Shown: positions 19,145 through 35,781 of the stretch, piece after piece | Position numbering within the stretch: position 1 is the stretch's first letter | Layout of the letters: each line of letters starts with the position of its first letter | Origin: Phycisphaerales bacterium | Lineage (GTDB): Bacteria; Planctomycetota; Phycisphaerae; Phycisphaerales; SM1A02 | Direction of reading: 5' to 3' | Assembly: GCA_022446885.1 (NCBI GenBank) | Contig: JAKVBU010000007.1 | Location: 20,081 to 84,080, forward strand | Length of the DNA stretch: 64,000 bases | Notes under the pieces: generated by a model | What the model saw: only the letters and a program-made list of their open reading frames with translations | The model's database searches: none | What the model was told of the DNA's origin: nothing | Program-made: the position numbers and the translations under genes

Positions 19145-19253
19145 GGTCAGTTCCTTTCTGCTGGCTGTGGGCCCTGTCGGCCCTGCCGTTGAGCCCTCTT
19201 GTCGGGGCTCTTCTCCTCAATACGAAGGCGATGCGATAAAGGTCGCGCTGAGA

Positions 19254-20750
19254 TCAGCCGCCTCCGGATTTTTCTGACGGCAGCTTGGTGACCAGCCGCA
19301 ACGACGCCGTCAGGCCCTCGAGCTGGAAGTGGGGTCGAAGGTAGAACTTCGCCGAGTAATACCCCGGATCGCCCTCGACGTCATCAACGACCACCTCAGC
19401 GGCGGCCAGGGGATACTTCGCCTTGATCTCATCGGAAGCGGTGGGATCGGTCGTCACGTACTGGGCGATCCAGTTCGTCAGCCAGTCCTGCATCTCCTTG
19501 CGCTCCTTGAAGGAGCCGACCTTGTCACGAACGATGCACTTGAGATAGTGGGCAAATCGGCTCGTGGCAAAGATGTATGGCAGGCGGGAGGCGAGCTTGG
19601 CGTTAGCCGTGGCATCTGGATCCTCGTACTCGTCCGGGTTGTTCACGGTCTGGCCAGCCATGAAGACGGCGTAGTCCGTGTTCTTCCAGTGCACGAGGGG
19701 GAGGAAGCCATTCTTGGCCAGTTCGGCCTCACGGCGGTCGGTGATGGCCACTTCGGTCGGGCACTTCATGGCCACGCCGCCGTCGTCGGTCGGGAAGGTA
19801 TGGGCCGGCAGGCCTTCGACCATGCCGCCATTCTCGACGCCGCGAATCGCGGTAGTCCACCCGTACAGCTTGAACGACTTGTTGATGTTGACGCCCATGG
19901 CGAAGGCGGCATTCATCCAGGTGTAGTCCTCACTGTTGCCCTGATCGGTGTCCTCCTCGTAGGCGAACTCGTCGATCGGGTTGGTGTTCCCGCCATAAGG
20001 CAGGCGCGAGAGCACGCGAGGCATGGTCAAGACCATGTAGCGGCTGTCTTCCGTCTTGCGGAAACTCTGCCACGCGGCGTACTCGGGCGTGCCCATGAGT
20101 TTGGTGAGATCACGCGGGTTGGCCAACTCCTGCCAGGAGTCCATGTTGAGCATGGTCGGGTCACCGGCCGCGATGAAAGGCGCATGGGCCGATGCGGCGA
20201 CCTGAGCGATGCCCTTCATGAGCTCGACGTCTGGAGGCGTCTGGTTGAAGTAGTAGTTCCCGATGAAGGTGCCGAAGGGCTCGCCACCGGGGGTGCCAAA
20301 CTCGTTCTCGTAGGCGGCCTTGAAGAAGGGGCTCTGGTCCCAAGCGGTGCCCTTGTACTTCTTGAGTTGCTTGGAGAGGTCCTTCTTGGAGATGTTCATG
20401 ACGCGGATCTTCAGCGTCTCATCGGTCTCCGAATTGCTCACCAGATAGTGGAGCCCACGCCAGGAACTCTCAAGCTCCTGAAACTGCTCGTTGTGCATGA
20501 TCACGTCGAGCTGGGACGACAGCCGCTTGTCGATCTCGGCCACCATCGACTCGATGCTCTTGACTGCATCGTCGGAAATGAGCGAGGCGTTCTTGAGCGC
20601 TGTCGAGGCGAGCGTGTTGACGGCCGACTTGATCGCGGCCTTCTGGGAATCACTCTTGGGCTTGAAGTTCTTCTCGAGCAGCGAATCGAGCTGCCCAGCT
20701 TCCATCACATCTGCTGATGCGGCCTGTTGTGCTTGTTCTTCAGGGGTCAT
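19254..20750 (-). CDS. tssC: T6SS contractile sheath large subunit TssC
   Basis: 498 aa. SWRGLHYLV, PFIAAGDPTMLNMDSWQEL, LPYIFATSRFAHYLK and YYSAKFYLRPHFQLEGL are typical VipB/TssC blocks. Confidence 0.95.
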   Translation of the reverse strand: MTPEEQAQQAASADVMEAGQLDSLLEKNFKPKSDSQKAAIKSAVNTLASTALKNASLISDDAVKSIESMVAEIDKRLSSQLDVIMHNEQFQELESSWRGLHYLVSNSETDETLKIRVMNISKKDLSKQLKKYKGTAWDQSPFFKAAYENEFGTPGGEPFGTFIGNYYFNQTPPDVELMKGIAQVAASAHAPFIAAGDPTMLNMDSWQELANPRDLTKLMGTPEYAAWQSFRKTEDSRYMVLTMPRVLSRLPYGGNTNPIDEFAYEEDTDQGNSEDYTWMNAAFAMGVNINKSFKLYGWTTAIRGVENGGMVEGLPAHTFPTDDGGVAMKCPTEVAITDRREAELAKNGFLPLVHWKNTDYAVFMAGQTVNNPDEYEDPDATANAKLASRLPYIFATSRFAHYLKCIVRDKVGSFKERKEMQDWLTNWIAQYVTTDPTASDEIKAKYPLAAAEVVVDDVEGDPGYYSAKFYLRPHFQLEGLTASLRLVTKLPSEKSGGG

Positions 20751-20773
20751 CTGTCACTCCTCCCGCAATGGGA

Positions 20774-21295
20774 TCAGCCCTCTTCCTCAGTGCCACCACC
20801 GCCCGGATTCGCCGACCCGGTCAGCGACTGGAGCAGTGCGGGGTCTTGAAGCACCTGACCGATCAGATCCTCGGCCTTTGTCTTCCCGTCCATGTATGTC
20901 AGCAGATTCGCCAGTTGTGTGCGAGCCTCGAGCAGTTCCTTCAGGCCGTCCACCTGACGAGCCACAGCCGCTGGTGAAAAGTCATCCAGACTCTCGAAGT
21001 GCAGATCGACCGGCAGTTCGCCTTCGCCTGTCATAGTGTTGGGCACACGGAATGTCGCGGCCGGCTTCATGCTCTTGAGGCGGTCGTCGAAGTTGTCCAC
21101 ATCGATGTCGAGGAATTTCCGTTCACCTGGTGCCGGCTGGTCGTCGCCACCTGAACCCGAGAGATCGGAAACGACGCCCGTGACGAACGGGAGATTGACC
21201 TTCTTCTGGGATCCGTAGAGTTCCACGTCGTACTCGATCTGGACTCTGGGCGGTCGATTGCGCCCGATGAACTTCTGTGCACTTGCCTTCGCCAT
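20774..21295 (-). CDS. tssB: T6SS contractile sheath small subunit TssB
   Basis: 173 aa. PPRVQIEYDVELYGSQKKVNLPFVTGVVSDLSG is the VipA/TssB signature. Confidence 0.95.
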   Translation of the reverse strand: MAKASAQKFIGRNRPPRVQIEYDVELYGSQKKVNLPFVTGVVSDLSGSGGDDQPAPGERKFLDIDVDNFDDRLKSMKPAATFRVPNTMTGEGELPVDLHFESLDDFSPAAVARQVDGLKELLEARTQLANLLTYMDGKTKAEDLIGQVLQDPALLQSLTGSANPGGGGTEEEG

Positions 21296-21344
21296 AGGTG
21301 AGTCTCCCCCCTTGCGTCAGGGGTTGTGGGTTCCTTCATCTTTC

Positions 21345-21372
21345 GGTCTCGACCGTGCGATCGATCGAGACC
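21345..21372. promoter_or_regulatory. inverted repeat in the divergent tssB/tssA control region (operator candidate)
   Basis: GGTCTCGA-N12-TCGAGACC perfect 8-bp arms, with a CGATCGATCG palindrome inside, in the 129-nt divergent intergenic region. Confidence 0.25.
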
Positions 21373-21424
21373 CGCAGAGAGTACAGTAGCATCGCCCGCG
21401 ACTAGATGTGAGGCAGGCGAGTGC

Positions 21425-22429
21425 ATGGCTACGAATGACTACATAGAGGGTTTTTTGGCGCCGGTATCGGATGAGAGCCCGGCCGGGATCGACGTCGAAT
21501 ACGACCCGGACTTCCTCCAGTTGGAGGCCATGCTCCCTGACACCACCGAGTCGATGCTCGAACCTGCAGAGGAGTCGTCCACTGATTGGCGAGGCATTCG
21601 CAATTCCGCAGAGGGCATACTCAAGCGGTCCAAGCACCTGCCCTCGGCGGTGCTGCTCTCGGCGGCCCTTGTCGAGACCCGAGGGCTTCCGGGGCTACGC
21701 GACGGACTATCGATCGTCCAGGGCATCATCGCCCAGTACTGGGACACGTTCTGGCCACGCATCGACGAAGAAGATCCTGACCCAATCGAACGGGTGAATA
21801 TTCTCGCCGGGCTGTCGCCTCCGATTTCATCTAGCGACTCCATCGGCTTCACCCGACTGGTGCAGGACATGCCCATCGTCACGGGAAAGTTGGCGGGCGC
21901 CCTGACACTCAAGACGATCCAGTCTGGCGCTAATGCCGAAGAAGGCGAGGCGGACGCCAGCGTCGTTTTGCCCGACGCGGACCCAGAAGACGTTGAAGCT
22001 GCCTCTCAGGCAACCCAGGATTGCCTTGACTCTCTCGAGGACATTGCTGAGCGTGTCTCAGCCCAGACCGATGGACAGGGCATCGTCGATTTCGGAGTGC
22101 TCACCGGCCAACTCAAAGAGATCCATCGGCCACTGGCGACCTTCCTTGGACAGGATGTCGGTGACGATGACGATGACGCGGGCTCTAGCGATGGTGGCCA
22201 GGGCGGATCGGGCCCCATCCGCAGCCGCTCGGATGTCGTGGCAGCCCTCGATCGCATCACCGACTGGTATGCCCAGAACGAGCCGGGCAGCCCGATTCCA
22301 CTCCTGCTGGACCGAGTGCGCAAGATGGTGCACATGAGCTTCCCGGAGCTGATGACCCAGATCTTCCCCGATGCCGTCGAAGGCGCCCGACTCATGGTGC
22401 ACGAAGCGGAAGAGTCGAACTTCGACTGA
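21425..22429 (+). CDS. tssA: T6SS protein TssA, short ImpA-family form
   Basis: ImpA_N signature FLAPVSDESPAGIDVEYDPDFLQLE. Acidic linker, then C-terminal DWYAQNEPGSPIPLLLDRVRKMVHMSFPELM. Start at the ATG at 21425. Confidence 0.88.
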   Translation: MATNDYIEGFLAPVSDESPAGIDVEYDPDFLQLEAMLPDTTESMLEPAEESSTDWRGIRNSAEGILKRSKHLPSAVLLSAALVETRGLPGLRDGLSIVQGIIAQYWDTFWPRIDEEDPDPIERVNILAGLSPPISSSDSIGFTRLVQDMPIVTGKLAGALTLKTIQSGANAEEGEADASVVLPDADPEDVEAASQATQDCLDSLEDIAERVSAQTDGQGIVDFGVLTGQLKEIHRPLATFLGQDVGDDDDDAGSSDGGQGGSGPIRSRSDVVAALDRITDWYAQNEPGSPIPLLLDRVRKMVHMSFPELMTQIFPDAVEGARLMVHEAEESNFD

Positions 22430-22505
22430 GGTCCTGAGGTCAGTTGCAGCTCCGAAGCGCCGGCTTCGAGTGGCCCATGACCCACCCCACCCCCACCCAA
22501 CAGCG

Positions 22506-25500
22506 TCAGGACCCACCGGTCGCGGCAGTCTTTGCCGCCTCCGTACCAGCTGACTGCGCCGCAGACTCCGCCGAAGATGGGGGCGCTGTGGTCGAGGGAG
22601 CCCCAGCCGGAGGTGCGGATGGTTGTGCCTGGGCGTTGGTGGCGGGGCCAGGTGGGGCACTTGCTGATTGCGTGCCAATCTGCGCTGGCGTATTGGCCAT
22701 TTTGGCCGCGTCCGTTCCAATCACCGGCGAGGTCATGCTCGATGGTGCCCCTTGCCCGATTCCAGTCGCATTTGCCTGATCCGTAGTTGCTGGAGGCGAG
22801 GTCGTCAGTTCAGCAGGGGCTCCGGCCGAATCACCTTCAGCCGCTTCGGGTGCCCCACCGCCCGATCCACCGAACAGCAGATTGTCTGGCCAATCTGACG
22901 GTGTCGGCCAATTGGCGACCTGAGGCAGCGGCCTCTGCAGTTTGAGCCCGAACCACCAATAGCACTCGAGCTCGAAGTCATTGTCAAACAGGATCGGAAT
23001 CCAGACGATGCCAGTCTTTTGATCGGCATCAGTCTGTGGGTTGAGATAGGCGTCGATCAACGCCCACGAACCGGACCAATGCACGACCGGGCCCGGAGCC
23101 AGGTCATCGACTCCGCGGAAGAACCTGATCTCCAGATTGGTTGCCGCCGCAGAAATCTGAACGTCTTTGCGCTCCAACTGTGTTCCGTCGCCCCGCATCG
23201 TCTCGACGCGGTTGCCCACCCGTGTTCCGTCGACCCAGATCTCCACATACCGGTACTGCATTGCCCCGTTCACCGGAAACTTCTGCGCCGTAGGCATCTT
23301 GGGCACCATCAAGGTGCGTTCGATTGGCGGTTGGATGAACGTGCCGCTCAGAGGCCCCGGCACACTCGCCAGCGCCATCACCACGTTTCCGACCCGCTGG
23401 GCAGCGGTGCGGGTGGGCGGCATCGCGGCGACGTTGCCCTGCGCCAGCCCCTGCGATGGCAACAACCCATCACGCAAGCGGGCCAATTCGTAGTCGATGC
23501 CGGGATCACCTGTTGTTCCACCAGCCAGAATGGTCTGTTGACCGGGCGATGGCGCCTTGGCACCACTGGCCCCGGCACTTGCATTCGATGCGTCCGTGCT
23601 GGTCTTGAGGCCGGTGTAGAAGCTGCCGATCTTGCCGGCCAGGACGTTGATCTCTGCCTGGGACAGGGCGTCGAGGTGGTTTCCGGTGTTCAGCACCGGC
23701 CACTTGAACGCGGTGCTCGCAACCTTGGATATGGCCTGCTCGGCGCCTTGGGAGATCGAGTTACTCAATGACTCCAACCCCGCCATAATGAGCTGGTCCC
23801 AGTAGGCGATCGTCTCCTTGGCGCCAGGCGTGTACAGAAAGAAGTACCGCGTCGTGAATTGCTTGATTGTCAGACCGAGCAGTTGCGTCCGTGCCGACGA
23901 AGCCGAATCAGGGAGCCCCTGCCAACGAAGAATCGCCGCCTGAGCACTGGACGTGGTGATCGCCGTGAGCTGCGTCAGCTGCGTGTTGATGGAGGTGAGT
24001 AAGGCCTTGGCCTGGGCAGCCTCCTCGGTGTCCTCGCTGAGGAAACCCACCTGTAGAGCAAGTCGAACCTGCTGCAGATACCCCTGCAGGGCGCTGTTCA
24101 CTTGGAAGGGCCGTAAGGTGGCAAGACTGGACTGATAGTCAGACCAAGTTTCGATTGGCGCAAACTGCCCCGAAGCCTGCATGGCGCGAGCCCAATAGTC
24201 CACATACAGACTGATGTAGCCCCGCAGCGATGCGGCCCGACTGTTGTACTTGCTGGTGAGTTGCGGCTGGCCCAGCATGGGAATGGTCGGCACCTTGGAA
24301 GCACCAGCTGCATCAGGAGTGGGTGCAGCGGTGGCAGCGCCCTGCCCGGTCAACTCACTGGCGGACTTGACTGAGTCGATCATGCCCTTGATCCGCTGCC
24401 AAGGTGCGACGACGTGAGCAGCAGCGATCGGGTTATACGCGCCGTCAAACGTGCCTGAGTCGGGTTGCTGGGTCAGGGGAATACCAGGGCGGAACCACGA
24501 AGAGGTTGCAGAAACCTCGCTGGCCACTTTCGTGGCGATCTCCTGCGATGACTGGGGCAGCGTCTCGATGGTGTTCGAGATCGCCCAGTACATCGCGCTC
24601 CAATTGGCCATGGCCGTGAGCATCGGCGCGGCCTTGGCGAAGTCCTTGGACTCCTGCGAGGGGCCCAATGCCGGGAGCGCTCCAGTGACGACGGAAGAGA
24701 GGTTCCGGCTGGCAACAACCTGCTCTGCCAACGTCGAACTGAAGTCAGCCACGGTCCCCGTGGGCCTGGCATTCATTCGCAGATCGATTTGAGACAGCAC
24801 ATCCATCTGCATGCTGGCGAGCAACTTTGGTGGTACCGGCGCGGGAGGTGCCGCATTTGCCAGGGCACCAGGCTGTGGCTTGGGGGGCTTGGGTACGACC
24901 CATGCCGTCTTGTCAAGGGCTCGGGCCTTCGCGATCAGGGCCCTGGATCGCTTGACCTGCTCTTGCTGCACCGTCGCCTGCAGATTGGTCAGGTGTTGCC
25001 TGATCCGCCGGAGCATCTGCGACCCACCCGTGCCCGCTGCGCTTCGAAGCACCACCGTCCGGGCGAGTAGCATGTCGAACTGCTTGAGCAGGGCGGCCTC
25101 GTCCTCTCTTGTTGCCCGCTCCACCATCGGCACGAGCAATTCACTGGCACCCCGCTTGAGCTCATTCGAATTCACTCGCCATAGATTGTTGGCATCAGTC
25201 GCCCGGGCCATGGCTGCGTTCCACCCCACAAGCACACCCTTGGCCTGCGCCTCAGTGGGCGGACGAATGGTGAATGCCTGAAGCGTCGCTGCCAACGCCT
25301 CGAGTTCCTTCGAGGCAGCTTGAAAATCAAGTATGCCCTTGATCGCATCCTCAGCCTGCCCCAGCGGCATCGTCGCCAAATACTCAGGCCGGGTCCAGGC
25401 CTTCGCATACCGCTCCATGCCGTGCAGAATCGCCAACGTGCTCTCGCGGGATCCGGCGCCGGCGGAGATCAGTGCTGCATCCAAAGAGTAGGCATCGGTG

Positions 25501-27467
25501 TCGGGCAGCAATTTGCTGATCCCGGTGCCGACCTCGAAGCCCTGAATGGTCGGTGCCAATCCAGAATCTGAATTGCCTTGTGTCAACACGTATGTGAGCA
25601 TGGGCCCCACGTCAATCGCCCCGAACCGGAATGTGTAGTACCAGTCGCTGTTGAAGTTCACCCGCGCCTGTTCAAGCTGTAGCAGATCGGCAAATGCCTG
25701 CGTTGCCTGAGGCGTCCAGTCAATCTCTGATTGACGCATCGACTCTTGCGCAGCAGCAACCAGAGGACGCAGCAACATCGGGTTGAAGAGTGAACGGAAT
25801 GCGAGCTTGCGTTGTGTGCCCAGCAGATCATCACGCACTGTGCCCATGTCGATGGAGGTCAGGCGAAATGCTGACGGAACGGTGCGCCGCTCGGTAGCGG
25901 CGGTGGCCGCCGTCGCAAGAAACTGCCCTCGGGTGATGTTCGCCTTGGGCATCTGCTCGTCTTCAGTCAAGCGAAAACTGCCGTCGGAATTGGCGGCGAT
26001 CAGTTCCGCGCCGTCCAGCCCCCCGTTCTTGATCTCCGATTCAAAAATCGACCAGTCCGCGTTGATTCGCCTTGCAGTCTTCTCCAGATCAACCCCACTG
26101 GTGAAGGTGCCAATCATGAACAACACCAAGACGGCATAGACCGCGGCCATCGACCCGACCAACGTGAGGTAGATCTTCCTGAACCGGGAGGGGCTCACCC
26201 GAGCGAGGGTGGACTCACGAAAGATCTTCTCCACGAACACGTCGCGAATGAACCGGCCAGTCCGATTGCTTCCAGTGATGTCATCCTTGTCCGCTTCGGC
26301 CGCCGTCAGGTACACGCCTCGAAGCGAGCAGTTGTGCAGTGAGGAAACCTCTCCGAATACGGCGTGGCACAACTCGGTAACGCCTGCACCCAGTTTGCGG
26401 ATGCGGTCCGGCAGGCTGAACAAACGCGATGCCCGAAGGAAGTACTCCGGCTCAGTTGAGCCAATGCGCAGGTCAGATCGAGCCAGCAGCGACTCGCCGA
26501 CATAGCCCATCCGGTCAGCAAGCGCTTCCATGCCCTCGGCGAGTTCGGGTCTGGCGAAAGGCTCTCCTGCTCGCACCTGTGTTGACCACCCGACGATCTG
26601 CCGGCTCTGGCCACCGGCCGACAGCGATCGCATGACCGACGACAGGCCCTCGACCTCATCGCATTTGGTCACCAAAACATAGACGGGTAGATCCAGGCCG
26701 AGCACGTTCACCGTGTCGAGCAGCATGCCTCGGAGATAGTTGATCTCTGATTGCAAGGCTGCATCTGATCCCAGCAGCGTGTGTGCCTCGATGGCAAGAA
26801 TGATGCCCCGAAGCTCCGGCGTGCTGCGGTCCTTGCGAATCCACTTGAGCAACTCGCGATACTCGGCAGCGCCTCGATTGCCCCACTCGGGCCGAAGCAC
26901 CTCACCTGCCGGATCAAGAATGGTGCCATTGGAGTGGAACCACCACTTGAGTCGCTGTGATTCCGACCCTGCGGCGGTATGCTCGGTGTCCAGCAGATCT
27001 AGGTCGCTGGACTCCATGAGCGTCGAGCGACCAGAACCGGGGCCGCCAACCAGAATGAACCATGGCCTGTTACGGGCATCCGCACCTGTGCTTGACAGCC
27101 GCCCCGTGCCTTCAATGAAGTCCTGCTTCAGCTCGTCCAGGCGGCGGCTGAGCACATCGGGCTCGGCCTCTTCGCCTTCCTTGCCGCCGCGAGCAACCTC
27201 GGCCAGGCGGCTGCGCAGGAACAAGTCGCGTCGAGCGGTCTTGACGGCCTTTCGCCGCTGCATGCTCATCCGAAACCGCATCGAGAGACCTCGCAGGATC
27301 GGCAGGAGAATCACGAACAGGCCGATGACACCGACAATGATGCCGACCCACAGGATCCAACCGCTGTCCGGGCTTGACGAAGCAGCGCGAGCTGCCAACG
27401 ACGCTCCCGAAGCCACGGGCGACAGTGCCACAACGCTGCAACCTGCGATCGTCAGCCGAGTGTTCAC
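22506..27467 (-). CDS. tssM: T6SS membrane-complex protein TssM (IcmF family), unusually long at 1653 aa
   Basis: Two N-terminal TM helices, a cytoplasmic NTPase-like domain (WFILVGGPGSGRSTL), and a third TM around aa 432-455. The long periplasmic region ends in an IcmF-C-like block (HWSGSWALIDAYL) and an Ala/Pro/Ser/Thr tail. Overlaps the tssL stop by 4 nt. Confidence 0.9.
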   Translation of the reverse strand: MNTRLTIAGCSVVALSPVASGASLAARAASSSPDSGWILWVGIIVGVIGLFVILLPILRGLSMRFRMSMQRRKAVKTARRDLFLRSRLAEVARGGKEGEEAEPDVLSRRLDELKQDFIEGTGRLSSTGADARNRPWFILVGGPGSGRSTLMESSDLDLLDTEHTAAGSESQRLKWWFHSNGTILDPAGEVLRPEWGNRGAAEYRELLKWIRKDRSTPELRGIILAIEAHTLLGSDAALQSEINYLRGMLLDTVNVLGLDLPVYVLVTKCDEVEGLSSVMRSLSAGGQSRQIVGWSTQVRAGEPFARPELAEGMEALADRMGYVGESLLARSDLRIGSTEPEYFLRASRLFSLPDRIRKLGAGVTELCHAVFGEVSSLHNCSLRGVYLTAAEADKDDITGSNRTGRFIRDVFVEKIFRESTLARVSPSRFRKIYLTLVGSMAAVYAVLVLFMIGTFTSGVDLEKTARRINADWSIFESEIKNGGLDGAELIAANSDGSFRLTEDEQMPKANITRGQFLATAATAATERRTVPSAFRLTSIDMGTVRDDLLGTQRKLAFRSLFNPMLLRPLVAAAQESMRQSEIDWTPQATQAFADLLQLEQARVNFNSDWYYTFRFGAIDVGPMLTYVLTQGNSDSGLAPTIQGFEVGTGISKLLPDTDAYSLDAALISAGAGSRESTLAILHGMERYAKAWTRPEYLATMPLGQAEDAIKGILDFQAASKELEALAATLQAFTIRPPTEAQAKGVLVGWNAAMARATDANNLWRVNSNELKRGASELLVPMVERATREDEAALLKQFDMLLARTVVLRSAAGTGGSQMLRRIRQHLTNLQATVQQEQVKRSRALIAKARALDKTAWVVPKPPKPQPGALANAAPPAPVPPKLLASMQMDVLSQIDLRMNARPTGTVADFSSTLAEQVVASRNLSSVVTGALPALGPSQESKDFAKAAPMLTAMANWSAMYWAISNTIETLPQSSQEIATKVASEVSATSSWFRPGIPLTQQPDSGTFDGAYNPIAAAHVVAPWQRIKGMIDSVKSASELTGQGAATAAPTPDAAGASKVPTIPMLGQPQLTSKYNSRAASLRGYISLYVDYWARAMQASGQFAPIETWSDYQSSLATLRPFQVNSALQGYLQQVRLALQVGFLSEDTEEAAQAKALLTSINTQLTQLTAITTSSAQAAILRWQGLPDSASSARTQLLGLTIKQFTTRYFFLYTPGAKETIAYWDQLIMAGLESLSNSISQGAEQAISKVASTAFKWPVLNTGNHLDALSQAEINVLAGKIGSFYTGLKTSTDASNASAGASGAKAPSPGQQTILAGGTTGDPGIDYELARLRDGLLPSQGLAQGNVAAMPPTRTAAQRVGNVVMALASVPGPLSGTFIQPPIERTLMVPKMPTAQKFPVNGAMQYRYVEIWVDGTRVGNRVETMRGDGTQLERKDVQISAAATNLEIRFFRGVDDLAPGPVVHWSGSWALIDAYLNPQTDADQKTGIVWIPILFDNDFELECYWWFGLKLQRPLPQVANWPTPSDWPDNLLFGGSGGGAPEAAEGDSAGAPAELTTSPPATTDQANATGIGQGAPSSMTSPVIGTDAAKMANTPAQIGTQSASAPPGPATNAQAQPSAPPAGAPSTTAPPSSAESAAQSAGTEAAKTAATGGS

Positions 27468-28246
27468 GGTGTCACAGGCTCCGTTCCGGTCGACTCGGTC
27501 GGTCCCGTGGGCGGATCCACTTCTTCCGTAATCAGCACGCGCGACATGCCCAAATCCGGCCTGAGGGCTGCCGATGCGATGCCCTCCAGCCGACGGCGCG
27601 GCTCATTCACATCGAGGCGAAATATGGCCTGGTTCGCGATGTAAGTGGCAAGGAAGCCCACGAGGCACACGGCTGCCGCCATTCGCCATCGCTTGACCCG
27701 CATGGGACGGCGGCGAGTGCGTGCATCGCGATGCTCATACGCCTCGGGCGTCACACGCCCCGTCTCGACCAGTTCAGGCGCCAATCCCAGCCGCAACGCA
27801 CATCGACGGAACAATCGATCGAGTTCAGGTGCGTCCGGCCTGTATGCACCGCTGAATCCCAGTGCCATGCAATCGTAGTACACCTGCACCCGCTCAGTTG
27901 CCAATTCCGAGGGATCCCCCAGCGTCTGCTCGAGTAGATCGAAGAACTTCTCATCGCCGGCAAGTTCATTTCGCTCGAATGCAAGTTCCTGCCAGGTACC
28001 CGTCACCGGCAGGCGCTCCTTCATCACAAAGTCGACGAAGAACAGCAAGGGCAATTCCGTCATCAGGAACTGACGCCCCAGTTGGGGGGACCGGCGGCTC
28101 TCCGATCGGAGTGTGTCTAGCTGCGACATGACTGACGTCCGGGCAGAGACGGCATCAAGCTGGGTTCCGGCGGCGGACTCGTCCGACCATGCACAGATCA
28201 TTGTGAAGAGGGGGCGACAGAAGATGGCGATCTTGTCTTCACGCAT
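27464..28246 (-). CDS. tssL: T6SS membrane-complex protein TssL (DotU family)
   Basis: VQVYYDCMALGFSGAYR is the DotU signature. A single TM (WRMAAAVCLVGFLATYI) is followed by a short tail with no OmpA/PG-binding domain. Start at the ATG at 28246, overlapping the tssK stop by 8 nt. Confidence 0.88.
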   Translation of the reverse strand: MREDKIAIFCRPLFTMICAWSDESAAGTQLDAVSARTSVMSQLDTLRSESRRSPQLGRQFLMTELPLLFFVDFVMKERLPVTGTWQELAFERNELAGDEKFFDLLEQTLGDPSELATERVQVYYDCMALGFSGAYRPDAPELDRLFRRCALRLGLAPELVETGRVTPEAYEHRDARTRRRPMRVKRWRMAAAVCLVGFLATYIANQAIFRLDVNEPRRRLEGIASAALRPDLGMSRVLITEEVDPPTGPTESTGTEPVTP

Positions 28247-29639
28247 CGCTCTGCTCCTCGCCCGAGGTCGACATGACCAGTTGCAGCGTGAACGACAAAG
28301 CCGATGAAGTCGTCCAGACCGCGGCCAGTTGGTGGTCTTCCCGGACCCGTGCCCACGCTGTTGCATTGGCGTCGCGGTTCACCTTGAAGTACACCCGACC
28401 CGGCCGCGAGGGCAAGGCCAGCGGTGGGAATCGATCTTCCTCGAGTGGCAGACCTCGCACACGACCCCCGGCCATCGAGCCCGGCAGCAGCTTGAAGCGG
28501 TCTGAGTCGGTGATGAGCTTGACCAGCTCTATCGTGTCTACGCCGCTCTGGGCATCCACCGCCAGATAGAAATCTGTGGCCTGTACGAAGTGCCGGTCTT
28601 CCAGCGTGACATCCATACGGGTGTCGGAGCCTTCGGTTGAGGTGGCCGTGAAGTCGACCGCCAGATAGGAGCCCTGCCCGGCATCGAACACGAGATTACG
28701 GATTCGCAGCGAAAGTTCACTGAGGGCGGGAAGGCAGTCGCGGTGGTCGTACTCGTCGATCAAGAACAGATCGCGCATCGGTCGTAGAGGCGCCAATTCA
28801 CCCAGCACCTCACGCAGCCGGTGATAGAACTCGTGCGGCGTGATCGCCGAAAGCGCCCGCGTGTCTTCCAACATCGGAAGGACACGACTGATGGCCTGCA
28901 GCCGAAGCATCCACTCGACCTGCCGCCCCATCAATCGCTCGGTGTTATAGCCCCCGCGACCGAGAAAGCCCAGATGCTCTTCGCGAGACGTGGCCAGTCT
29001 CGCTGCCAATTCACCGGCCAGCGCCATGATCGCATCGCTCCCGCCACATGTAAGTGCGGGCGCTGTGTAGCGTCCATCCAGCCCGACCTGGAACTGATCG
29101 CTCGTCCCCTCGGGCAGGATGCGCAGCAGAGGCAGTACTTCGAAGCCATTGGGAACGGCATCTTCGAGTACGAGTTGTGCGTTGACTCGCCTCACCGGAA
29201 TGTCCTCCGGATCGGTTCCGTCGTTCTCGTCGCGAATGTCGCTGGTGGCAACGTTCCAGCGGCTGGCTTGATCCTGTGCCCCCTCCGGCGAGACGTTCTT
29301 GCCGGTGGGCGTCCAACTGGGTACGGCAAGCATGACCCGCACCCCTTGCGTGGCCGTTCGCATGGTGTCGGCCACCCGCAGAGGTTCCAGATCGGCGTCG
29401 TCGGGTGCGTCGATTACTAGGCCACTGGGCATGATGACTCGCAGGGTTCTGAATGAGATCAGTCCTTCTCGGAGCGCATCCGAGAGCAGGTCCATCTCGA
29501 TGACGCCCCACGGGAAAGCCATCCCCACTGAGCGAGAGAGTGCGTCACCGGCACGCATGGAACGCTGCATCGTCTGCAGGTGATGCTGCAGCACGAAGAG
29601 CCCGTCATGCCAGTGAATATCCTGTCCCTGCAGTCCCAC
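28239..29639 (-). CDS. tssK: T6SS baseplate protein TssK
   Basis: 466 aa. IHWHDGLFVLQHHLQTMQRS and GVIEMDL are the typical ImpJ/VasE N-terminus. Confidence 0.92.
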   Translation of the reverse strand: MGLQGQDIHWHDGLFVLQHHLQTMQRSMRAGDALSRSVGMAFPWGVIEMDLLSDALREGLISFRTLRVIMPSGLVIDAPDDADLEPLRVADTMRTATQGVRVMLAVPSWTPTGKNVSPEGAQDQASRWNVATSDIRDENDGTDPEDIPVRRVNAQLVLEDAVPNGFEVLPLLRILPEGTSDQFQVGLDGRYTAPALTCGGSDAIMALAGELAARLATSREEHLGFLGRGGYNTERLMGRQVEWMLRLQAISRVLPMLEDTRALSAITPHEFYHRLREVLGELAPLRPMRDLFLIDEYDHRDCLPALSELSLRIRNLVFDAGQGSYLAVDFTATSTEGSDTRMDVTLEDRHFVQATDFYLAVDAQSGVDTIELVKLITDSDRFKLLPGSMAGGRVRGLPLEEDRFPPLALPSRPGRVYFKVNRDANATAWARVREDHQLAAVWTTSSALSFTLQLVMSTSGEEQSDA

Positions 29640-29659
29640 GGTTGTGTCCTTTGGTGTGC

Positions 29660-30298
29660 TCAGCTTGCGGCCGGCGGCACAGCACCTTTCATGTTGACGG
29701 GGGTGACGAGCCGCAGGCCATTTGGAGTCATGTCAACCTGGACCGTATTAGTGAACATGCCATAGGCCTCCTGGGTCCAGGGAATAATGAGCCGGCGGGG
29801 GTCATCCTTGGCTTCGTAGTAGTGAACGCCCGGGGGCGGAGGTCCCCTTTCGGTTGGTGGCCGCGGCCGCCATGCACCTGGGAGATTGGCGATGAGAACG
29901 AGCGATGTGGCCCCCCCGCTCTTCCAGGCGCTGCGTTGGGCGGTCCAACTGCCAACCTGAAACGGCCCCGGAGTGGAGGTCGTCATGAGATAGGTGGCTC
30001 GCGGTGCATTCGCCCGGAATGAATTGCCCGGCGTCCAATAGTTGTCTATGGGGTAGGCCTTCCATCGCTGCTGTTCGATGGCATTGACGCCGATGACATC
30101 CAGTTCGATGGTGGGCAGCAGCCCCGTAGGTTCCTTGAATCCCGTCGATGGCGTGATGTTGATGGTGCCGCCGAACGGGGTGGGGCCACAGCCGGTCATG
30201 ATGAAGGTCAAAACAACAAGCGCACCAAGCCACCGACCTGTTCGGTGGCCCTGTATCGCCAGAGGGCGTTCTGCTTGAATGGCCGATTCCTTCCGCAC
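29660..30298 (-). CDS. lipoprotein, candidate TssJ-equivalent
   Basis: GAGGGGA Shine-Dalgarno plus a GTG at 30298. Lipobox FIMTGC gives a mature size of ~177 aa. It occupies the slot immediately upstream of tssK-tssL-tssM, the canonical tssJKLM order. Only weak motif resemblance to SciN/TssJ. Confidence 0.5.
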   Translation of the reverse strand: MRKESAIQAERPLAIQGHRTGRWLGALVVLTFIMTGCGPTPFGGTINITPSTGFKEPTGLLPTIELDVIGVNAIEQQRWKAYPIDNYWTPGNSFRANAPRATYLMTTSTPGPFQVGSWTAQRSAWKSGGATSLVLIANLPGAWRPRPPTERGPPPPGVHYYEAKDDPRRLIIPWTQEAYGMFTNTVQVDMTPNGLRLVTPVNMKGAVPPAAS

Positions 30299-30606
30299 GC
30301 CAATCCCCTCCCTGACACGCGCAGCGCGCACACCGCGCTGCACCCGCCAAGGCGGCCAAAGCATACATCCGCCTGACGGGTCGATCGCGACGGGCCGACA
30401 ACTGGCGGGCAACATGTTCACAACCTGCCCACAGCTTGAAAGATGGCCGGCGTCACTCGCCCAACACTCGACCATTGAACCTCATGCTCTACGCGTAGCC
30501 GGTCCCAGCAGGAAGGTGGTCCACGAACTGTCGTACTTCGCGCCTATCTTTTGTGACAACAACTGATATCGGAGTATCGGTGACAGCAGCCTTGCATGGG
30601 CGGCGG

Positions 30607-30873
30607 TCATTCGCCTTCGACGATTGCCCTTAGGTGATGGGCCCCCTGCCGCTGGTGGACATCGGGCGTGCATCTGGCAGCAGGCTGGGCCAGGCCGCAC
30701 ACCTCTGCGAAGGTCATGACCCCGGCAGGCAGCACGCTGACGATGATGTTGCCCACCGTCGTCTCCAACAGCACACCCACCAAGTGCGGCATCTGGCTGG
30801 CATGGGGACTGAACGGGCCTCGCTCAGAACAGGACATACCCGCTTCAGCCATCGAGGGAATCGGGGCAGGCAC
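30607..30873 (-). CDS. possible second, degenerate PAAR-like protein
   Basis: MPHLVGVLLETTVGNIIVSVLPAGVMTFAEVCG...QPAARC aligns by eye with IPHVGGPLMPPGGIKYISGVLPVAIVGGQAICVG...MPAARI of the adjacent PAAR protein. Weak RBS and uncertain start. Confidence 0.3.
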   Translation of the reverse strand: MPAPIPSMAEAGMSCSERGPFSPHASQMPHLVGVLLETTVGNIIVSVLPAGVMTFAEVCGLAQPAARCTPDVHQRQGAHHLRAIVEGE

Positions 30874-30928
30874 ATACTGAAGCCCTGCCTGGCGAGTACT
30901 GATGCTATTGCCGCTTGAGTCTGAGGGC

Positions 30929-31201
30929 TCAACCCGTGACTGTCATGAGTCCGGCTGACGTGATCACTTTGCCGCCGTGAGCGGTTGAAGATGTGATCCG
31001 GGCCGCGGGCATCACGCCGACCATCACCTTGGCTGAACCTTGCATGATGGAATCCGGTGAACCCACGCAAATCGCCTGCCCCCCGACGATCGCCACGGGC
31101 AGAACGCCACTGATGTACTTGATGCCACCGGGTGGCATCAACGGGCCACCGACATGTGGAATAGGCGGTGCCCCGGGCGTTTGCATCGGGCACTGATGCA
31201 T
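30929..31201 (-). CDS. PAAR-domain spike-tip protein
   Basis: 90 aa. CPMQTPGAPPIPHVGGP..., ...VMVGVMPAARITSSTAHGGKVI... give a PAAR motif with flanking HxGG blocks. Confidence 0.8.
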   Translation of the reverse strand: MHQCPMQTPGAPPIPHVGGPLMPPGGIKYISGVLPVAIVGGQAICVGSPDSIMQGSAKVMVGVMPAARITSSTAHGGKVITSAGLMTVTG

Positions 31202-31371
31202 CGAACCGACTGTGGCCAGAGGAAGCGTGCTCGCGCGGCGAGTCTACATGACTACAGCTTCGGGATCGTCCACATCTCATGGCAATTGGCGGCTGTGTTT
31301 GCACTCGGGCCGATGCGCGGCATAGACTCGCATTGCTGCTCCTGTCATCGGCACAAGGAAGGAAGATCAAC

Positions 31372-32577
31372 GTGCGCACGACCACCATCACCATCAATGG
31401 TGAAACTGATTGGACGCTGCGTAGCGCGGAGATCGTCGAATCGCTCTGTACACCCGGCGCCATCACTGCCGAGGTGACCCACGAATCCGCAGTCGACCCG
31501 GCCGACCTCCTGGGCACTTGGATCTCGTTCGAGATCCCGACGCTGCTGCCCTCGCGGCCGACGCGCTGGGCTGGTGGGCTCATCACCAGATGCGAATCTG
31601 TATCCGGCACAGCCAACGGGTTAAGCGAGCGATTCTTCAAGATTCAGGCCGCCGCCCCACAGGAGATCATGACGTTGCGTCGCCAGACCCGGGAGTTCAG
31701 CGGCATGAGCGTGCTGGACATCTGCCGGGACATTCTGGGTGAGTGGGGGGAACGGGTGCCCCAGTCGCGTAGTCCACTCCTCGTGCTCGACAACGAACCG
31801 GCCGACATCCCGCTGCAGCACATTCGACAGACCGGCGAAAGCGACCTGCAGTTCGTCCAGCGACTACTGCATCAGGCCGGCGTGTTCACGATCAATAACT
31901 GCAACGGCCCCAAACTGACCGACACCGAGTTGATTCTGGGCACCATAAGTGGGGCCGCGGATGCATGGACGGACGACATGGGCCTGCAGTATCAACTGGT
32001 CACGGGTGCACCGGAACGGCAGCAGATCACCAACTGGAGACGAACGGTGAATCTCGTGCCGAGCACTCCGGTGGTGGCCACCTGGCATCCATCGGTGGCG
32101 GACAACCACCTGCCTTCAAATCCAACGGCCATGCACGCCTCACCTTCTTCGCAGGACTTCGACGGATGGGAGTTCATCGAACACCCACTGGGCGCACCTC
32201 AGGCCGGGGCCCAGATGAGCGACCTCCGCGATCAACTCTCGAAGGTTCGCGAGGCCGCCCTCCATCAGGAGCGGCACTGGCGTAACGGAGCAGCTGCGTC
32301 CACGACCATCGTGCCAGGCACGATGGTCGAGCCTAAGGACCTGCCCGATGGTGACGAAGGTCGTTTCTTTGTTACAGCGTGCCGACTCGTGGTGCTGGGC
32401 GACAGTTTCGCCGACCAGATCGATCTCGCATCTCCCGTGTGCTGCGCCTTCACCGCTCTTCCAGAAGAGGTGCCGTTCAGGCCCCCGATCCGGGATGAAC
32501 GCATGGAACCGCCCGGTCTGGAATCCACCCGTCTGGCGGCTGCGCTCGATGCGCTCCATACACAGGAGGCTGTCTGA
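31372..32577 (+). CDS. vgrG: VgrG N-terminal half (gp27-like / phage late control D-like) as a stand-alone gene
   Basis: GGAAGGAAG Shine-Dalgarno plus a GTG at 31372. Phage_GPD-like body (IRQTGESDLQFVQRLLHQAGVFT). Ends just after FTALPEEVPFRPPIR, the motif that precedes the OB-fold in fused VgrGs. Its TGA overlaps the next ATG. Confidence 0.8.
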   Translation: MRTTTITINGETDWTLRSAEIVESLCTPGAITAEVTHESAVDPADLLGTWISFEIPTLLPSRPTRWAGGLITRCESVSGTANGLSERFFKIQAAAPQEIMTLRRQTREFSGMSVLDICRDILGEWGERVPQSRSPLLVLDNEPADIPLQHIRQTGESDLQFVQRLLHQAGVFTINNCNGPKLTDTELILGTISGAADAWTDDMGLQYQLVTGAPERQQITNWRRTVNLVPSTPVVATWHPSVADNHLPSNPTAMHASPSSQDFDGWEFIEHPLGAPQAGAQMSDLRDQLSKVREAALHQERHWRNGAAASTTIVPGTMVEPKDLPDGDEGRFFVTACRLVVLGDSFADQIDLASPVCCAFTALPEEVPFRPPIRDERMEPPGLESTRLAAALDALHTQEAV

Positions 32578-34583
32578 TGTCGCGCCCTTACGCCTCCTGC
32601 ACCACCAATACGGTGTGCTCCCCCGGCATGGGGAACGGTCGGCCCGGGGGCAACCTGAATCCGGTCGCCGATCGCCCGAATCTCCGCACGGGCCGCGTGA
32701 TATCTGTGAACGTCAATGCCGGCGCCGGAAATTCGACCGCCGACTACTGGACGGTCACGATCCAACCCACCGGTACATCGGATCCAACCGCCCGCATTCA
32801 CGCCGACTGCCTGTTCACGGCAGCCTCGGATAATGCCGGTGCCAGCGGTGTGCCCCGCGTAGGCACGCAGGTGTACTTCCTGCAGATCGACCAGACCACC
32901 GTGTGCTTGGGCGCGATGTACACGAATCAGGCCCCGGCACCCTGGCCAAACGATCCTGCGCTGAACTCCCTCCGCTCGACCGGCCTTCGTATACCGGACC
33001 TCACCGAAGACGGTCAGGACGTCTCCGTCAGCACCGAGGCCAAGGGGCTCATGCAGAAGACGGGCCTTCTGGTGTCGGGCACCACCTGGTGGCCCGCGCC
33101 CGAGACTTCGGATGACGACTCTGGCGAAGACTCCAACGAGAACTTCGTTAAGAAGATCTGGTCCTCGCTGAAAGCCGACCGTGACCTTGCCTCGCCCGGT
33201 CACAAGACCGGGCTCGAGGCCATCGCTGAGTCGGGCAATCCACTCCCCTTCAATGAAGTTGGGCTGCAGAGCCGCCGCATGTCCACGGACAAGGACGGCA
33301 AGACGACCACCTCCGATTCGGGCGGCGTCAATGTGTACGGCCAGGACTTCATCTCGCAGACTACGCACGGGTCGATCGCTTCCACAGCGATCGGCAACAT
33401 CTCCACTAGTGCAGGTGGAAACGTGCACATCGAGGCGTCCAACCAGATCTCTCTGCAGGTCGGCGCAACGGGAATCACCATCACCGAAGGCGGCGTCGAG
33501 ATCTCCCAGAACTCGCTGGCGGCGGTGGGATCCAGTTCGAGTCTAAGTGTCGGCCAGACATCCATCTCGATGTTCGGCGCGTCGATCAAAGCCAGTTCGG
33601 TGTCGGGTGTCTCGCTGCAGGCCATGGGCAGTGCAATGAAGCTGTCGCCATTGAAGGCCGAACTCTGCGCGCTCAACAGCGTCAAATGTGTCTCCGGCTG
33701 GTACAACCTGAGTTTCGGAGATCTTGCCGGCGCTCTGAAGAAGAGTGCCACCGCCATGGGCAAGGACCTCCATGCCGGGAAGTCTGTTGCCGGCGACGCA
33801 CGTAAACTTTTGGATGGAACGTTAGCCGCCATCGGCCTGCCATGGAACATGGCTGGCGGAACGCCCTGGGCCGTGTCTGGCACGCTACCCACCTTGAGCG
33901 GCAACGACTCCTGGTACTCCCTCGCCATGGCGCTCAAGGACGTGCTGGTCCCGGCAGGCACCAAACTAGCCAAGGCCACCGCCAAGGGGCAGGCCTCCGG
34001 ATTCATCGCCACCGGCAACGAGGCGTACATGCTCGGCGGGTTCTATATGAAGGACCCCAAGCCAAAGCCAGGAAAGCTCGACAAACTGAAGAAGAAGGCC
34101 AAGGACGCCGTTATGTCGAAACTCGGCAAGGCACCGAAGCCAAAAGAGCCAGATCCTTTGGAGGAGGCGTCGAAGTCCGCATTCGGTGGCAAGCGGATCC
34201 TGCTGCCGGTGTGCAACGACGCCGAATCCGGCCGTTGCCTCACCCTGTCGGGTGGATCCACTGAATCAAAGGTGCAGTTGTTCTCGACGGAGATGGCCGC
34301 GTCGCTGGAATCGATGGACGCCGCTGGCGCGGAGCGATTCTCCGGCGGCCACGGTGTGCTCACCCCGTTCTTCGCCCTGGCATCCTTGATGTGGACGAAG
34401 GGCGCAGCCGCTGCGGCCATGGCGAAGAAGTACGCCTCGCGTCGAAGTGACTCGGTCGGCAACACCGACGCCACCACCGGCAATGCCATCGAGATGACTC
34501 CAATGACGACGAGAGAAACGGCAAATCGCGAAGAGATGACCGCTACCACGGAAGAGGCCGTCGCGGCGACGCTGGAGGAGTGA
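32577..34583 (+). CDS. vgrG: VgrG C-terminal half (gp5-like OB-fold and beta-helix) with a ~290-aa C-terminal extension
   Basis: AGGAGG Shine-Dalgarno 7 nt upstream. OB-fold LRTGRVISV...GVPRVGTQVYFLQIDQTTVCLGAMY. Helix repeats GNISTSAGGNVHIEASNQISLQVGATGITITEGGVEIS. Then a Lys-rich linker and a hydrophobic segment. Confidence 0.8.
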   Translation: MSRPYASCTTNTVCSPGMGNGRPGGNLNPVADRPNLRTGRVISVNVNAGAGNSTADYWTVTIQPTGTSDPTARIHADCLFTAASDNAGASGVPRVGTQVYFLQIDQTTVCLGAMYTNQAPAPWPNDPALNSLRSTGLRIPDLTEDGQDVSVSTEAKGLMQKTGLLVSGTTWWPAPETSDDDSGEDSNENFVKKIWSSLKADRDLASPGHKTGLEAIAESGNPLPFNEVGLQSRRMSTDKDGKTTTSDSGGVNVYGQDFISQTTHGSIASTAIGNISTSAGGNVHIEASNQISLQVGATGITITEGGVEISQNSLAAVGSSSSLSVGQTSISMFGASIKASSVSGVSLQAMGSAMKLSPLKAELCALNSVKCVSGWYNLSFGDLAGALKKSATAMGKDLHAGKSVAGDARKLLDGTLAAIGLPWNMAGGTPWAVSGTLPTLSGNDSWYSLAMALKDVLVPAGTKLAKATAKGQASGFIATGNEAYMLGGFYMKDPKPKPGKLDKLKKKAKDAVMSKLGKAPKPKEPDPLEEASKSAFGGKRILLPVCNDAESGRCLTLSGGSTESKVQLFSTEMAASLESMDAAGAERFSGGHGVLTPFFALASLMWTKGAAAAAMAKKYASRRSDSVGNTDATTGNAIEMTPMTTRETANREEMTATTEEAVAATLEE

Positions 34584-34584
34584 G

Positions 34585-35748
34585 ATGACCATTCCGGCAG
34601 ACCAATCCTGGGAAATTCTTGACCGGTTGACGGCGCACCTTCCGGATCCGGATTCGCCGGTGGAGATTCCGCCCATCGAGCGCCCTCTGGTTCTACTGCG
34701 TCAACCTGACGAACCACTGACGGAATTTGTCACGGCGAACAAACTCGGCATGGACTGCCTTGTTGCGGCCGAAGCGCACAACACTCCCGAAGGCGCTTTG
34801 ATGCACCTGCTGCGAGAAGGAGACCACGCGTCAGCCATCGCCCTGATGGCCGCGACACTTCCGCCGCGAGAGGGACTTTGGTGGGGCGCACGCTTCGCCT
34901 GGGACATCCGTCTGGACATCATGCGGAACTGGCAACAGCTCAAAGCCGAACAACCCCCCGCTCCACCAGCACAAACGCAGCCCCGGGCCGAGCCTCCACC
35001 CGAGGTGCCCCCCAAGCCAAAAGTGGATGAAGCGGGTGCAGCTGAGGCCGCCGCCGCCGCGATGGCGCCCCTGCATGAGGCGTTGGCCGCGTTCACGGGT
35101 GATCCCACCTTCATGGCACATGTGCAGGCCAACCCTGAAATCGCCCAGAACGCCGCAGCCATGACAACCAAGTTTCGCTCGGCGCTTGCCGCCGTCGATA
35201 CCACGCCGCCCCGACAGATCATTCCACGCCCATCAGGCCAACGCAAAGCCGCAAAGCCCCCTGAGGTGTCCCGGGACAACAAGGTGAAGAAGCTGCTCTT
35301 GAGCGAGGTCGGCTTCAAGGGCCACTCCGCGATGCGCGCACGGAGGATGTACAACCAGTCGCTGGCAATCGCGCTGCAGTGGATCACGAAACCGTGTCAG
35401 GAACATGCGGCGCTTGCGGGGACCTTCGCGAAGACCGTGCCGACCGCCGGTGTCGCCAAGGCACTCGCGCGGGCGACATTCTGGTGTGGCGAAAACGTAA
35501 ATCTGGACAATCCCACGCAGGTCGTTCCGCCGAGCCCGGCACTGCGCATCAACGGGCTGCGTGCCCTGCTCGCCGGCTGCATGGCGAAGAAGAGCGGTCT
35601 GCTCGACCGCGGGCAACGAACACGCTGGTGCATCACGCGGGGAATCGGGGTCGCCACCGGTGAGAGCAATTGGGATGATGCAATGTCTGACTTCAACGAC
35701 TACGACGCATTCGTGAAGGCCGCACTGGACCTTGAAGACACCGACTGA
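34585..35748 (+). CDS. hypothetical protein coupled to the vgrG C-half (cargo or adaptor candidate)
   Basis: GGAGGAG Shine-Dalgarno, and the ATG lies 1 nt after the vgrG stop. 387 aa with a central Pro/Ala linker (QPPAPPAQTQPRAEPPPEVPPKPK). No domain recognised. Confidence 0.65.
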   Translation: MTIPADQSWEILDRLTAHLPDPDSPVEIPPIERPLVLLRQPDEPLTEFVTANKLGMDCLVAAEAHNTPEGALMHLLREGDHASAIALMAATLPPREGLWWGARFAWDIRLDIMRNWQQLKAEQPPAPPAQTQPRAEPPPEVPPKPKVDEAGAAEAAAAAMAPLHEALAAFTGDPTFMAHVQANPEIAQNAAAMTTKFRSALAAVDTTPPRQIIPRPSGQRKAAKPPEVSRDNKVKKLLLSEVGFKGHSAMRARRMYNQSLAIALQWITKPCQEHAALAGTFAKTVPTAGVAKALARATFWCGENVNLDNPTQVVPPSPALRINGLRALLAGCMAKKSGLLDRGQRTRWCITRGIGVATGESNWDDAMSDFNDYDAFVKAALDLEDTD

Positions 35749-35781
35749 TTCAACGACTGATTCCACAAAGGAGCAACGACC

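Follow-up and report, generated by a model that had tools for sequence, protein, structure and literature searches.

VgrG is the textbook example of a phage hub–spike pair fused into one protein, and assembly models for type VI secretion systems (T6SS) of the T6SS-i class assume this fusion. The locus described here, from a Phycisphaerales bacterium of the Planctomycetota (GenBank assembly GCA_022446885.1, contig JAKVBU010000007.1), raises the question of whether an otherwise standard T6SS-i can build its spike from two polypeptides. We analysed positions 20,081–84,080 of the forward strand of this contig, a stretch of 64,000 nucleotides (nt) that is called the window below; coordinates are those of the window unless a relative is named. 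Next to a T6SS core cluster it carries two overlapping genes, ORF A and ORF B, which an initial annotation, made from the DNA letters alone, had interpreted as a VgrG cut at its domain boundary into a gp27-like and a gp5-like gene, as in phage T4. Our analysis suggests that the spike is indeed probably built from two polypeptides, with ORF A as the hub and ORF B as a gp5-like needle, and we put the probability of this at roughly 0.75.

The two genes and the boundary between them

The hub gene and its junction with ORF B comprise the following features:

31372–32577, + strand: ORF A, the gp27-like hub half of VgrG (401 amino acids (aa), GTG start, frame 1), without OB-fold or beta-helix
32564–32569, + strand: AGGAGG Shine–Dalgarno sequence for ORF B, inside the 3' end of ORF A and 7 nt before the ATG, as read from the sequence
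32575–32579, + strand: TGATG stop/start overlap, with ORF B in the −1 frame relative to ORF A, a layout typical of translational coupling

ORF A is 100% identical to NCBI MCH2135263.1, a ‘phage late control D family protein’. It begins at the annotated GTG at 31372, the position at which its homologues also start, and ends in a TGA at 32575–32577, about 30 aa after the motif FTALPEEVPFRPPIR (FRPPIR). ORF B is identical to MCH2135264.1 (‘hypothetical protein MK101_01630’) and extends from an ATG at 32577 to 34583, encoding 668 aa; its frame is open only from 32499, 78 nt upstream of that ATG. The frames, the coordinates, the TGATG junction and the placement of the Shine–Dalgarno sequence were all confirmed from the sequence as initially annotated.

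The hub assignment was clear. ORF A passes the Pfam family Phage_GPD (PF05954) with 97.2 bits against a cut-off of 30.1 (E 1.3e-27), and the ORF A homologues of relatives carry the same family. The match spans aa 23–339 of the 401-aa GTG-started protein and profile positions 2–299 of 305 (the search query was the 432-aa ATG-started translation, where the match lies at aa 54–370). The VgrG model TIGR03361 was matched over positions 8–356 of 513 only, with 66.4 bits and short of its cut-off of 186.35, while a hidden Markov model (HMM) of fused VgrG matched ORF A alone in the window, over HMM positions 38–373. A search of the PDB with the ORF A family profile matched eight T6SS VgrG chains at their residues approximately 40–360 and recovered no Afp8, Pvc8 or phage hub protein, the sole other match being a phage sheath initiator (E 0.91); matches to PHROGs were marginal. 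These results identify ORF A as a predicted gp27-type hub, and as the hub half only.

Six annotated fused VgrGs taken from plasmids served as the reference for locating the cut, by profile–profile alignment with hhalign. ORF A 5–392 aligned with fused VgrG 10–393 (probability 99.8%, E 7.5e-30), and ORF B 34–329 aligned with fused VgrG 385–594 (E 1e-3), which covers the Gp5_trimer_C region. In the reference fused VgrG, Pfam places GPD at 41–343, OB at 403–470 and Gp5_trimer_C at 487–597. Given this map, the end of ORF A at about VgrG position 393 and the start of ORF B at about 385 put the stop codon at the boundary between hub and OB-fold, with ORF B continuing from there. The alignment supports the proposal that a VgrG has been divided at that boundary into a gp27-like and a gp5-like gene.

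ORF B, the candidate needle, can be divided into five parts:

32577–32681, + strand: aa 1–35, Gly/Pro-rich leader before the first beta-strand; AlphaFold2 predicted local distance difference test (pLDDT) below 35, no secondary structure predicted
32682–32951, + strand: aa 36–125, OB-fold-like domain, the putative equivalent of the gp5/gpV N-terminal OB domain (Phage_base_V), by remote homology
32952–33311, + strand: aa 126–245, neck with conserved TGxRIPD, GTTWW and FNE motifs and an acidic variable linker; its length differs among relatives
33312–33716, + strand: aa 246–380, beta-helix-like repeat region, the putative needle; short strands in AlphaFold2
33717–34583, + strand: aa 381–668 and the stop codon, conserved C-terminal extension of about 290 aa with predicted helices and a Lys-rich variable linker

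For the OB-like domain, hhalign placed the region opposite VgrG 429–479 (P 5e-5) and P2 gpV 56–94 (P 3e-4), and when the ORF B N-terminal profile was compared with the six fused VgrGs singly, the best local alignment fell inside the OB region in all six. A profile of the N-terminal ~110 residues, searched against the PDB, returned Afp8 386–445, VgrG1 400–474, Pvc8 400–454 and two more VgrGs, in every case at the OB domain. A PRVG...G motif is conserved in this domain, and AlphaFold2 arranges aa 35–114 as b1-b2-b3-helix-b4-b5, an OB-like topology, at a pLDDT of only 50–68. The repeat region gave weak matches over aa 261–370 to DUF2345 (E 0.0068, 16.7 bits against a cut-off of 30.7) and to the Francisella-type TssI model NF041249 (E 0.0039), the former reaching E 3.5e-5 in one ORF B homologue (P0006). 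The neck yielded no family match, and the C-terminal extension matched nothing in Pfam, the PDB or PHROG; the latter is a candidate cargo or adaptor-binding domain. At its C-terminus, hydrophobic helices (Kyte–Doolittle) reach threshold in several relatives and stay below it in the window copy. Because several weak remote-homology signals agree on position, ORF B is probably an OB-fold followed by a beta-helix, although this is not demonstrated.

A number of results weigh against this assignment and against a two-polypeptide spike. ORF B has no Pfam family above threshold and matches neither TIGR03361 nor TIGR01646. The hhalign probabilities for its alignments are 21–68%, Phage_base_V (PF04717) attains a best E of 0.057 and appears in only two of eight ORF B family members, and the PDB matches to OB domains are weak (E 0.03–0.3). 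AlphaFold2 models are of low confidence (mean pLDDT 30 for the full length with five sequences and 43 for aa 1–400 with 11 sequences); they are monomers, in which a trimeric beta-helix cannot show. Foldseek of the ORF B model against the PDB found nothing below E 0.039, with top ranks that are suggestive only (VgrS, Pvc8, PdpA-VgrG, the Mu baseplate, the phiKZ spike and VgrG1). The DNA comes from an incomplete metagenome-assembled genome (MAG), so that a canonical fused VgrG could lie elsewhere in it, and one related locus, L001, has A and B paralogues that do not all lie side by side, so strict pairing of one hub with one needle does not hold throughout. Searches of the PDB with the single ORF B sequence and its full-length profile, of 50,697 phage records by tblastn, and of plasmids and PHROGs gave no match.

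The T6SS-i locus and conservation of the split

The genes around the pair place it in a T6SS island:

10936–30475, no strand assigned: T6SS-i core cluster, identified with Pfam and NCBIfam: TagJ/ImpE, ClpV, DUF3467, TssG, TssF, TssE, Hcp, TssC, TssB, TssA, TssM, TssL, TssK and a candidate lipoprotein
30929–31201, − strand: PAAR-domain protein of 89 aa, divergent from ORF A (Pfam PAAR_motif, E 7.1e-11)
34585–35748, + strand: DUF6931 protein of 387 aa, starting 1 nt after the ORF B stop (Pfam DUF6931, E 1.3e-11)
35782–36105, + strand: acidic 107-aa protein with beta-strand repeats, starting 33 nt after the DUF6931 gene; it closes the conserved module

TssA, B, C, E, F, G, K, L and M, Hcp, ClpV and PAAR are all encoded within 10.9–31.2 kb of the window, TssC matching TIGR03355 at 703 bits and TssK matching TIGR03353 at 205 bits. 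The flanking cluster is thus a complete, otherwise standard T6SS-i core. Neither a fused VgrG nor a second copy of ORF A or ORF B is present within the 64-kb window, and no phage or extracellular contractile injection system (eCIS) structural genes were seen among the neighbours of the locus. The PAAR protein, presumed to be the spike tip, also lies upstream in divergent orientation in L001 and L015, where upstream sequence is present.

An exhaustive HMMER search of 1.84 billion representatives recovered only 10 ORF B relatives, and a profile-based repeat of a word-indexed search added no further ones; two scans of GTDB species genomes for the family found nothing, and a metagenome scan returned only contigs that were already known. 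Separate hub and B-like genes occur in six independent metagenomic lineages, which derive from different samples and assemblers. Loci with gene context are L001 (ENA), L002/L006 (JGI, ENA), L003 with L005 (Logan, JGI), L015 (JGI) and L016 (Logan). Identity to homologues is 33–61% for ORF A and 22–54% for ORF B, and every detectable ORF A homologue is 401–410 aa long. Wherever context is present, a separate B-like gene comes after the hub gene, the exception being one hub paralogue in L001 and L003, after which come other genes, including a second hub gene, and not directly a B gene. The initial annotation had suggested that related genomes be checked for a fused gene: none carries one, and the split is kept with differing junctions:

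Window and L002: TGATG, 1-nt overlap, B in the −1 frame relative to A
L001 and L005: ATGA, 4-nt overlap, B in the −1 frame relative to A
L015: 20-nt overlap, B in the +1 frame relative to A
L016: 138-nt spacer, B in the same frame as A

Downstream of the pair, the order A, B, DUF6931 and a protein of about 108 aa is kept in all six lineages. On this comparative evidence the two-gene VgrG is clade-wide, stable and conserved, and the split is not a sequencing error. Separately, a 1.7-kb ENA contig encodes a 218-aa fragment (P0010) that is 100% identical to ORF B aa 451–668 (window 33927–34580), which indicates that the same organism was assembled independently in another data set; the fragment stops short of the A/B junction.

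Two explanations would do away with separate proteins altogether. The split might be an artefact or a pseudogene, produced by a sequencing or assembly indel or by a recent frameshift in a fused vgrG; the source is, after all, a MAG, and the frame of ORF B is open for 78 nt ahead of its ATG, as it would be after a recent frameshift. Set against this are the six independent lineages with separate genes and an ORF A of near-constant length, junctions that vary from overlaps of 1, 4 and 20 nt to a 138-nt spacer in three relative frames, and a B frame that in relatives is open just 18–24 nt upstream of its start. Every B gene has its own start, a Shine–Dalgarno sequence is present in the window and in L002 (AGGAG at the equivalent place), and both proteins are conserved at 22–61% identity, all of which makes an artefact scarcely credible. 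Alternatively, the two ORFs could be joined at the protein level by programmed −1 frameshifting, readthrough or trans-splicing, ORF A by itself then being a by-product. In favour of this, four lineages have B in the −1 frame relative to A, −1 frameshifting is known from P2-type tails (in E/E'), and in L016 the two genes share a frame with one TAG between them. No slippery heptamer (X_XXY_YYZ) was found anywhere in the window ORF A or the L002 A, however, nor near the L001 junction; the relative frame is −1, +1 or 0 by lineage, so that no single recoding mechanism is conserved; and a strong Shine–Dalgarno sequence and ATG mark independent initiation of ORF B. Joining of the products therefore appears very improbable. 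Programmed frameshifting was rejected on the lack of a heptamer and the inconsistent frames across lineages, and a split intein or trans-splicing on inspection, the tail of A having no Cys1 block and the leader of B no terminal HN followed by Cys, Ser or Thr. L016, the most GC-rich relative, has hub and needle in the same frame over positions 1–694, with one TAG, 46 sense codons and no other stop between them; readthrough of that single TAG would yield a fused protein, and the layout is probably a coincidence.

The remaining alternatives concern what ORF B does and where the pair came from. ORF B could be a cargo or effector with an OB-like plug, the true spike being a fused VgrG elsewhere or ORF A with another partner. 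Its similarity to gp5 and VgrG is weak, its large C-terminal extension and dedicated partner DUF6931 recall many effector–chaperone pairs, and the incomplete MAG holds a second B paralogue on another contig. We regard a role purely as cargo as unlikely: ORF A has no OB-fold or beta-helix and so cannot carry the adjacent PAAR protein, ORF B maps contiguously onto the missing half of VgrG with the helix region included, the PAAR-A-B order is kept even at 22% B identity, and no fused VgrG occurs within 64 kb around a complete T6SS core. As to origin, the pair might have been acquired already split from a myophage or a class II eCIS, replacing the resident VgrG with the same function. Hub and spike are as a rule encoded separately in P2, Mu, T4 and eCIS IIa–c, the best PDB match of the ORF B OB profile is the eCIS protein Afp8, and the GPD score of ORF A (97 bits) is close to that of P2 gpD (95 bits) and far under those of canonical VgrGs (approx. 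300 bits). Profile comparison gives a different picture, with the ORF A profile matching individual T6SS VgrGs at E 1e-11 to 1e-15 over 300–340 columns but P2 gpD at only 4e-4 over 27 columns and Mu gp44 at 0.028. The PDB search of ORF A described above, which returned eight T6SS VgrG chains and no phage or eCIS hub, the PHROG search, marginal for A and empty for B, and the equally empty search of phage records with B point the same way, and acquisition in a split state seems to us a doubtful account. We rejected a prophage or an eCIS as the source of the entire locus, given the lack of phage or eCIS structural neighbours and the complete T6SS-i core.

Profile evidence places the pair in the VgrG lineage and argues that it is not a recent phage import. 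Since, among the proteins compared, ORF A is nearer to T6SS VgrGs than to the phage hubs gpD and gp44, fission of a fused vgrG early in a Phycisphaerales-related clade would be the more parsimonious history, although it is not proven; the pair may instead represent a retained pre-fusion state or an acquisition from a split-spike eCIS.

Comparison with known spikes and a possible mode of assembly

The combined A and B products would have the same domain order as canonical T6SS-i VgrG (Pseudomonas aeruginosa VgrG1, PDB 4MTK/4UHV; TIGR03361), namely hub, OB-fold, beta-helix and the optional C-terminal extension of ‘evolved’ VgrGs, and the genomic setting is also the same, with PAAR and a full TssA–M/ClpV/Hcp cluster. 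Canonical VgrG is one chain, whereas the predicted spike of the window would comprise two and its needle passes no Pfam threshold; in ORF B a long and lineage-specific neck separates OB-fold and helix, unlike in canonical VgrG. The closest topological parallels are the myophage pairs Mu gp44/gp45, P2 gpD/gpV and T4 gp27/gp5, in which hub and OB needle are separate and cut at the same boundary. These pairs sit in phage tails and the window pair in a T6SS cluster, and ORF B is three to four times the length of gpV or gp45. The initial likening to T4 was right in topology; in other respects it fits less well, as T4 gp5 has a lysozyme domain and none is detectable in ORF B, and the gene layout is nearer to that of Mu, where the gp44 and gp45 genes are likewise adjacent and overlapping.

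Two-polypeptide spikes are not without precedent in secretion systems. The spike of the Francisella T6SS-ii consists of a 164-aa VgrG and a partly gp27-like PdpA (PMC5924787, PMC10653695), forming a (VgrG-PdpA)3 complex (PDB 6U9E), and in some Acinetobacter strains vgrG loci are split, with a resemblance to phage spikes that the authors noted (Repizo et al. 2019, PMC6838775). The statement in the initial annotation that VgrG is fused in every described T6SS class was therefore wrong. The Francisella spike is cut elsewhere, since its VgrG has no OB-fold while ORF B keeps an OB-like N-terminal domain; PdpA is a 95 kDa protein that is only partly gp27-like, whereas the window hub is an ordinary 401-aa GPD protein; and the Francisella core is of the T6SS-ii type while the core genes of the window match T6SS-i equivalogs. 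Beyond the weak beta-helix match to NF041249, nothing detectable connects ORF B with the Francisella spike. In Acinetobacter the split is reported for individual strains, the other VgrGs of the genus being fused, and the authors did not show that it is functional; the split described here, by contrast, holds throughout a deep clade, in which B identity falls to 22%, together with conserved accessory genes. Class IIa–c eCIS encode the Gp27 and Gp5 parts of afp8 as separate ORFs (Chen et al. 2019, PMC6899500). Those loci are set apart by gene content, with Afp-type sheath, tube, baseplate and tail genes and an Afp16 cap but no TssJLM membrane complex, whereas the window has TssL, TssM, TssK, TssA and ClpV. 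The literature searched contained no description of a two-gene VgrG for Planctomycetota. What is new here is a clade-wide and long-maintained two-gene VgrG in an otherwise standard T6SS-i, with a divergent needle and a conserved accessory pair; it is a variant of a known machine and not a new kind of system.

How such a spike might be put together can be sketched from established knowledge of T4 gp27–gp5, Mu gp44/gp45 and VgrG structures, starting from what is directly established here: the domain content of ORF A, the position of the cut relative to fused VgrGs, the coupled gene layout, the conserved split and four-gene module, and the T6SS-i context. With its AGGAGG inside ORF A and its start codon in the TGATG overlap, ORF B would be translationally coupled to ORF A, which would favour a 1:1 ratio suited to an A3B3 complex. 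ORF A would trimerise into a pseudo-hexameric ring that matches the three-fold symmetry of the needle to the six-fold Hcp tube and to the TssEFGK baseplate. ORF B, trimerising through its OB-folds and beta-helix, would plug into this ring non-covalently, on the model of gp5 in gp27 and of Mu gp45 in gp44, and the PAAR protein would cap the needle helix. The DUF6931 protein and the 107-aa protein may fold, load or extend the needle and the C-terminal extension of ORF B, acting as chaperone, adaptor or helix extension.

If this scheme holds, hub and needle can persist as separate, co-translated proteins in an otherwise standard T6SS-i across long evolutionary distances, which amounts to a natural experiment. 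It permits us to ask what the covalent link contributes to baseplate nucleation and to priming of the Hcp tube, whether hub and needle exchange independently, and whether fusion elsewhere is ancestral or derived. There is a practical consequence as well: since the hub is annotated as ‘phage late control D’ and the needle as ‘hypothetical protein’, automated T6SS detection that depends on a VgrG match will score such loci as lacking TssI.

Accessory genes, paralogues and neighbours

The two genes downstream of the pair accompany it closely. A DUF6931 gene occupies the same position in L001 (twice), L002, L003, L006, L015 and L016. The small acidic protein, 107–109 aa long with short strand-like repeats, was found in seven modules. 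Over its final 50 aa it shares 58% identity (E 7e-16) with the C-terminal end of a 316-aa short-B paralogue in L001, which otherwise has the B-type OB-fold and neck (L001 3897–4847; the small protein is at 8156–8485), and it shows weak similarity to the beta-helix of ORF B (P 0.004). By these similarities the small protein looks like a free-standing piece of the needle helix. Together with the C-terminal extension of ORF B and the DUF6931 protein, the small protein (108 aa) makes up a candidate cargo and loading module. A scan of 30800–36400 for promoters and terminators gave nothing better than shuffled sequence, and no + strand terminator was found in that scan within the run from ORF A through ORF B and DUF6931 to the small ORF.

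Paralogues of both halves exist. The same MAG encodes a second B-type protein on another contig (MCH2135693.1, MK101_03810, our P0009), which is 643 aa long and 39% identical. In L001, positions 3897–14763 hold two hub paralogues, approximately 34% identical to each other, and three B-like genes, in the order short-B, B, DUF6931, small ORF, hub, hub and B, DUF6931, small ORF; this arrangement implies that hubs and needles are not strictly paired. A tentative extension of the two-polypeptide spike, which we regard as possible but rather unlikely, is that one conserved hub accepts interchangeable needle paralogues, each with its own C-terminal payload, DUF6931 chaperone and small beta-helical accessory protein. 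The second B paralogue in the MAG, the unpaired A and B genes of L001 and the 58% identity between short-B and the small protein are compatible with such exchange. Were it to occur, a change of cargo would need duplication and diversification of the needle half only, and the C-terminal extension of ORF B with DUF6931 would represent an undescribed class of effector and chaperone.

Several other features of the island were observed in passing. TssM (22506–27467, − strand) is unusually long at 1653 aa, as is its L001 orthologue (1627 aa), and only the N-terminal ~460 aa match IcmF/TssM models (NCBIfam 143 bits against an equivalog cut-off of 388). The DUF3467 protein (14710–15204, − strand; E 5.7e-9), which is not a standard T6SS component, adjoins tssG. 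Between tssK and the PAAR gene, the ORF at 29660–30475 (− strand) has no family match and carries a hydrophobic stretch, after which a lipobox-like MTGC lies at aa 93–96 of the longest ORF; an unannotated 242-aa gene lies at the equivalent position in L001, and the ORF may encode a divergent TssJ-like lipoprotein. On the far side of the spike module, a gene for a NuoG-like NADH dehydrogenase subunit flanks it both in the window (36113–37966, + strand) and in L006 (6729–8426), and the module is located at a conserved chromosomal edge of the T6SS island.

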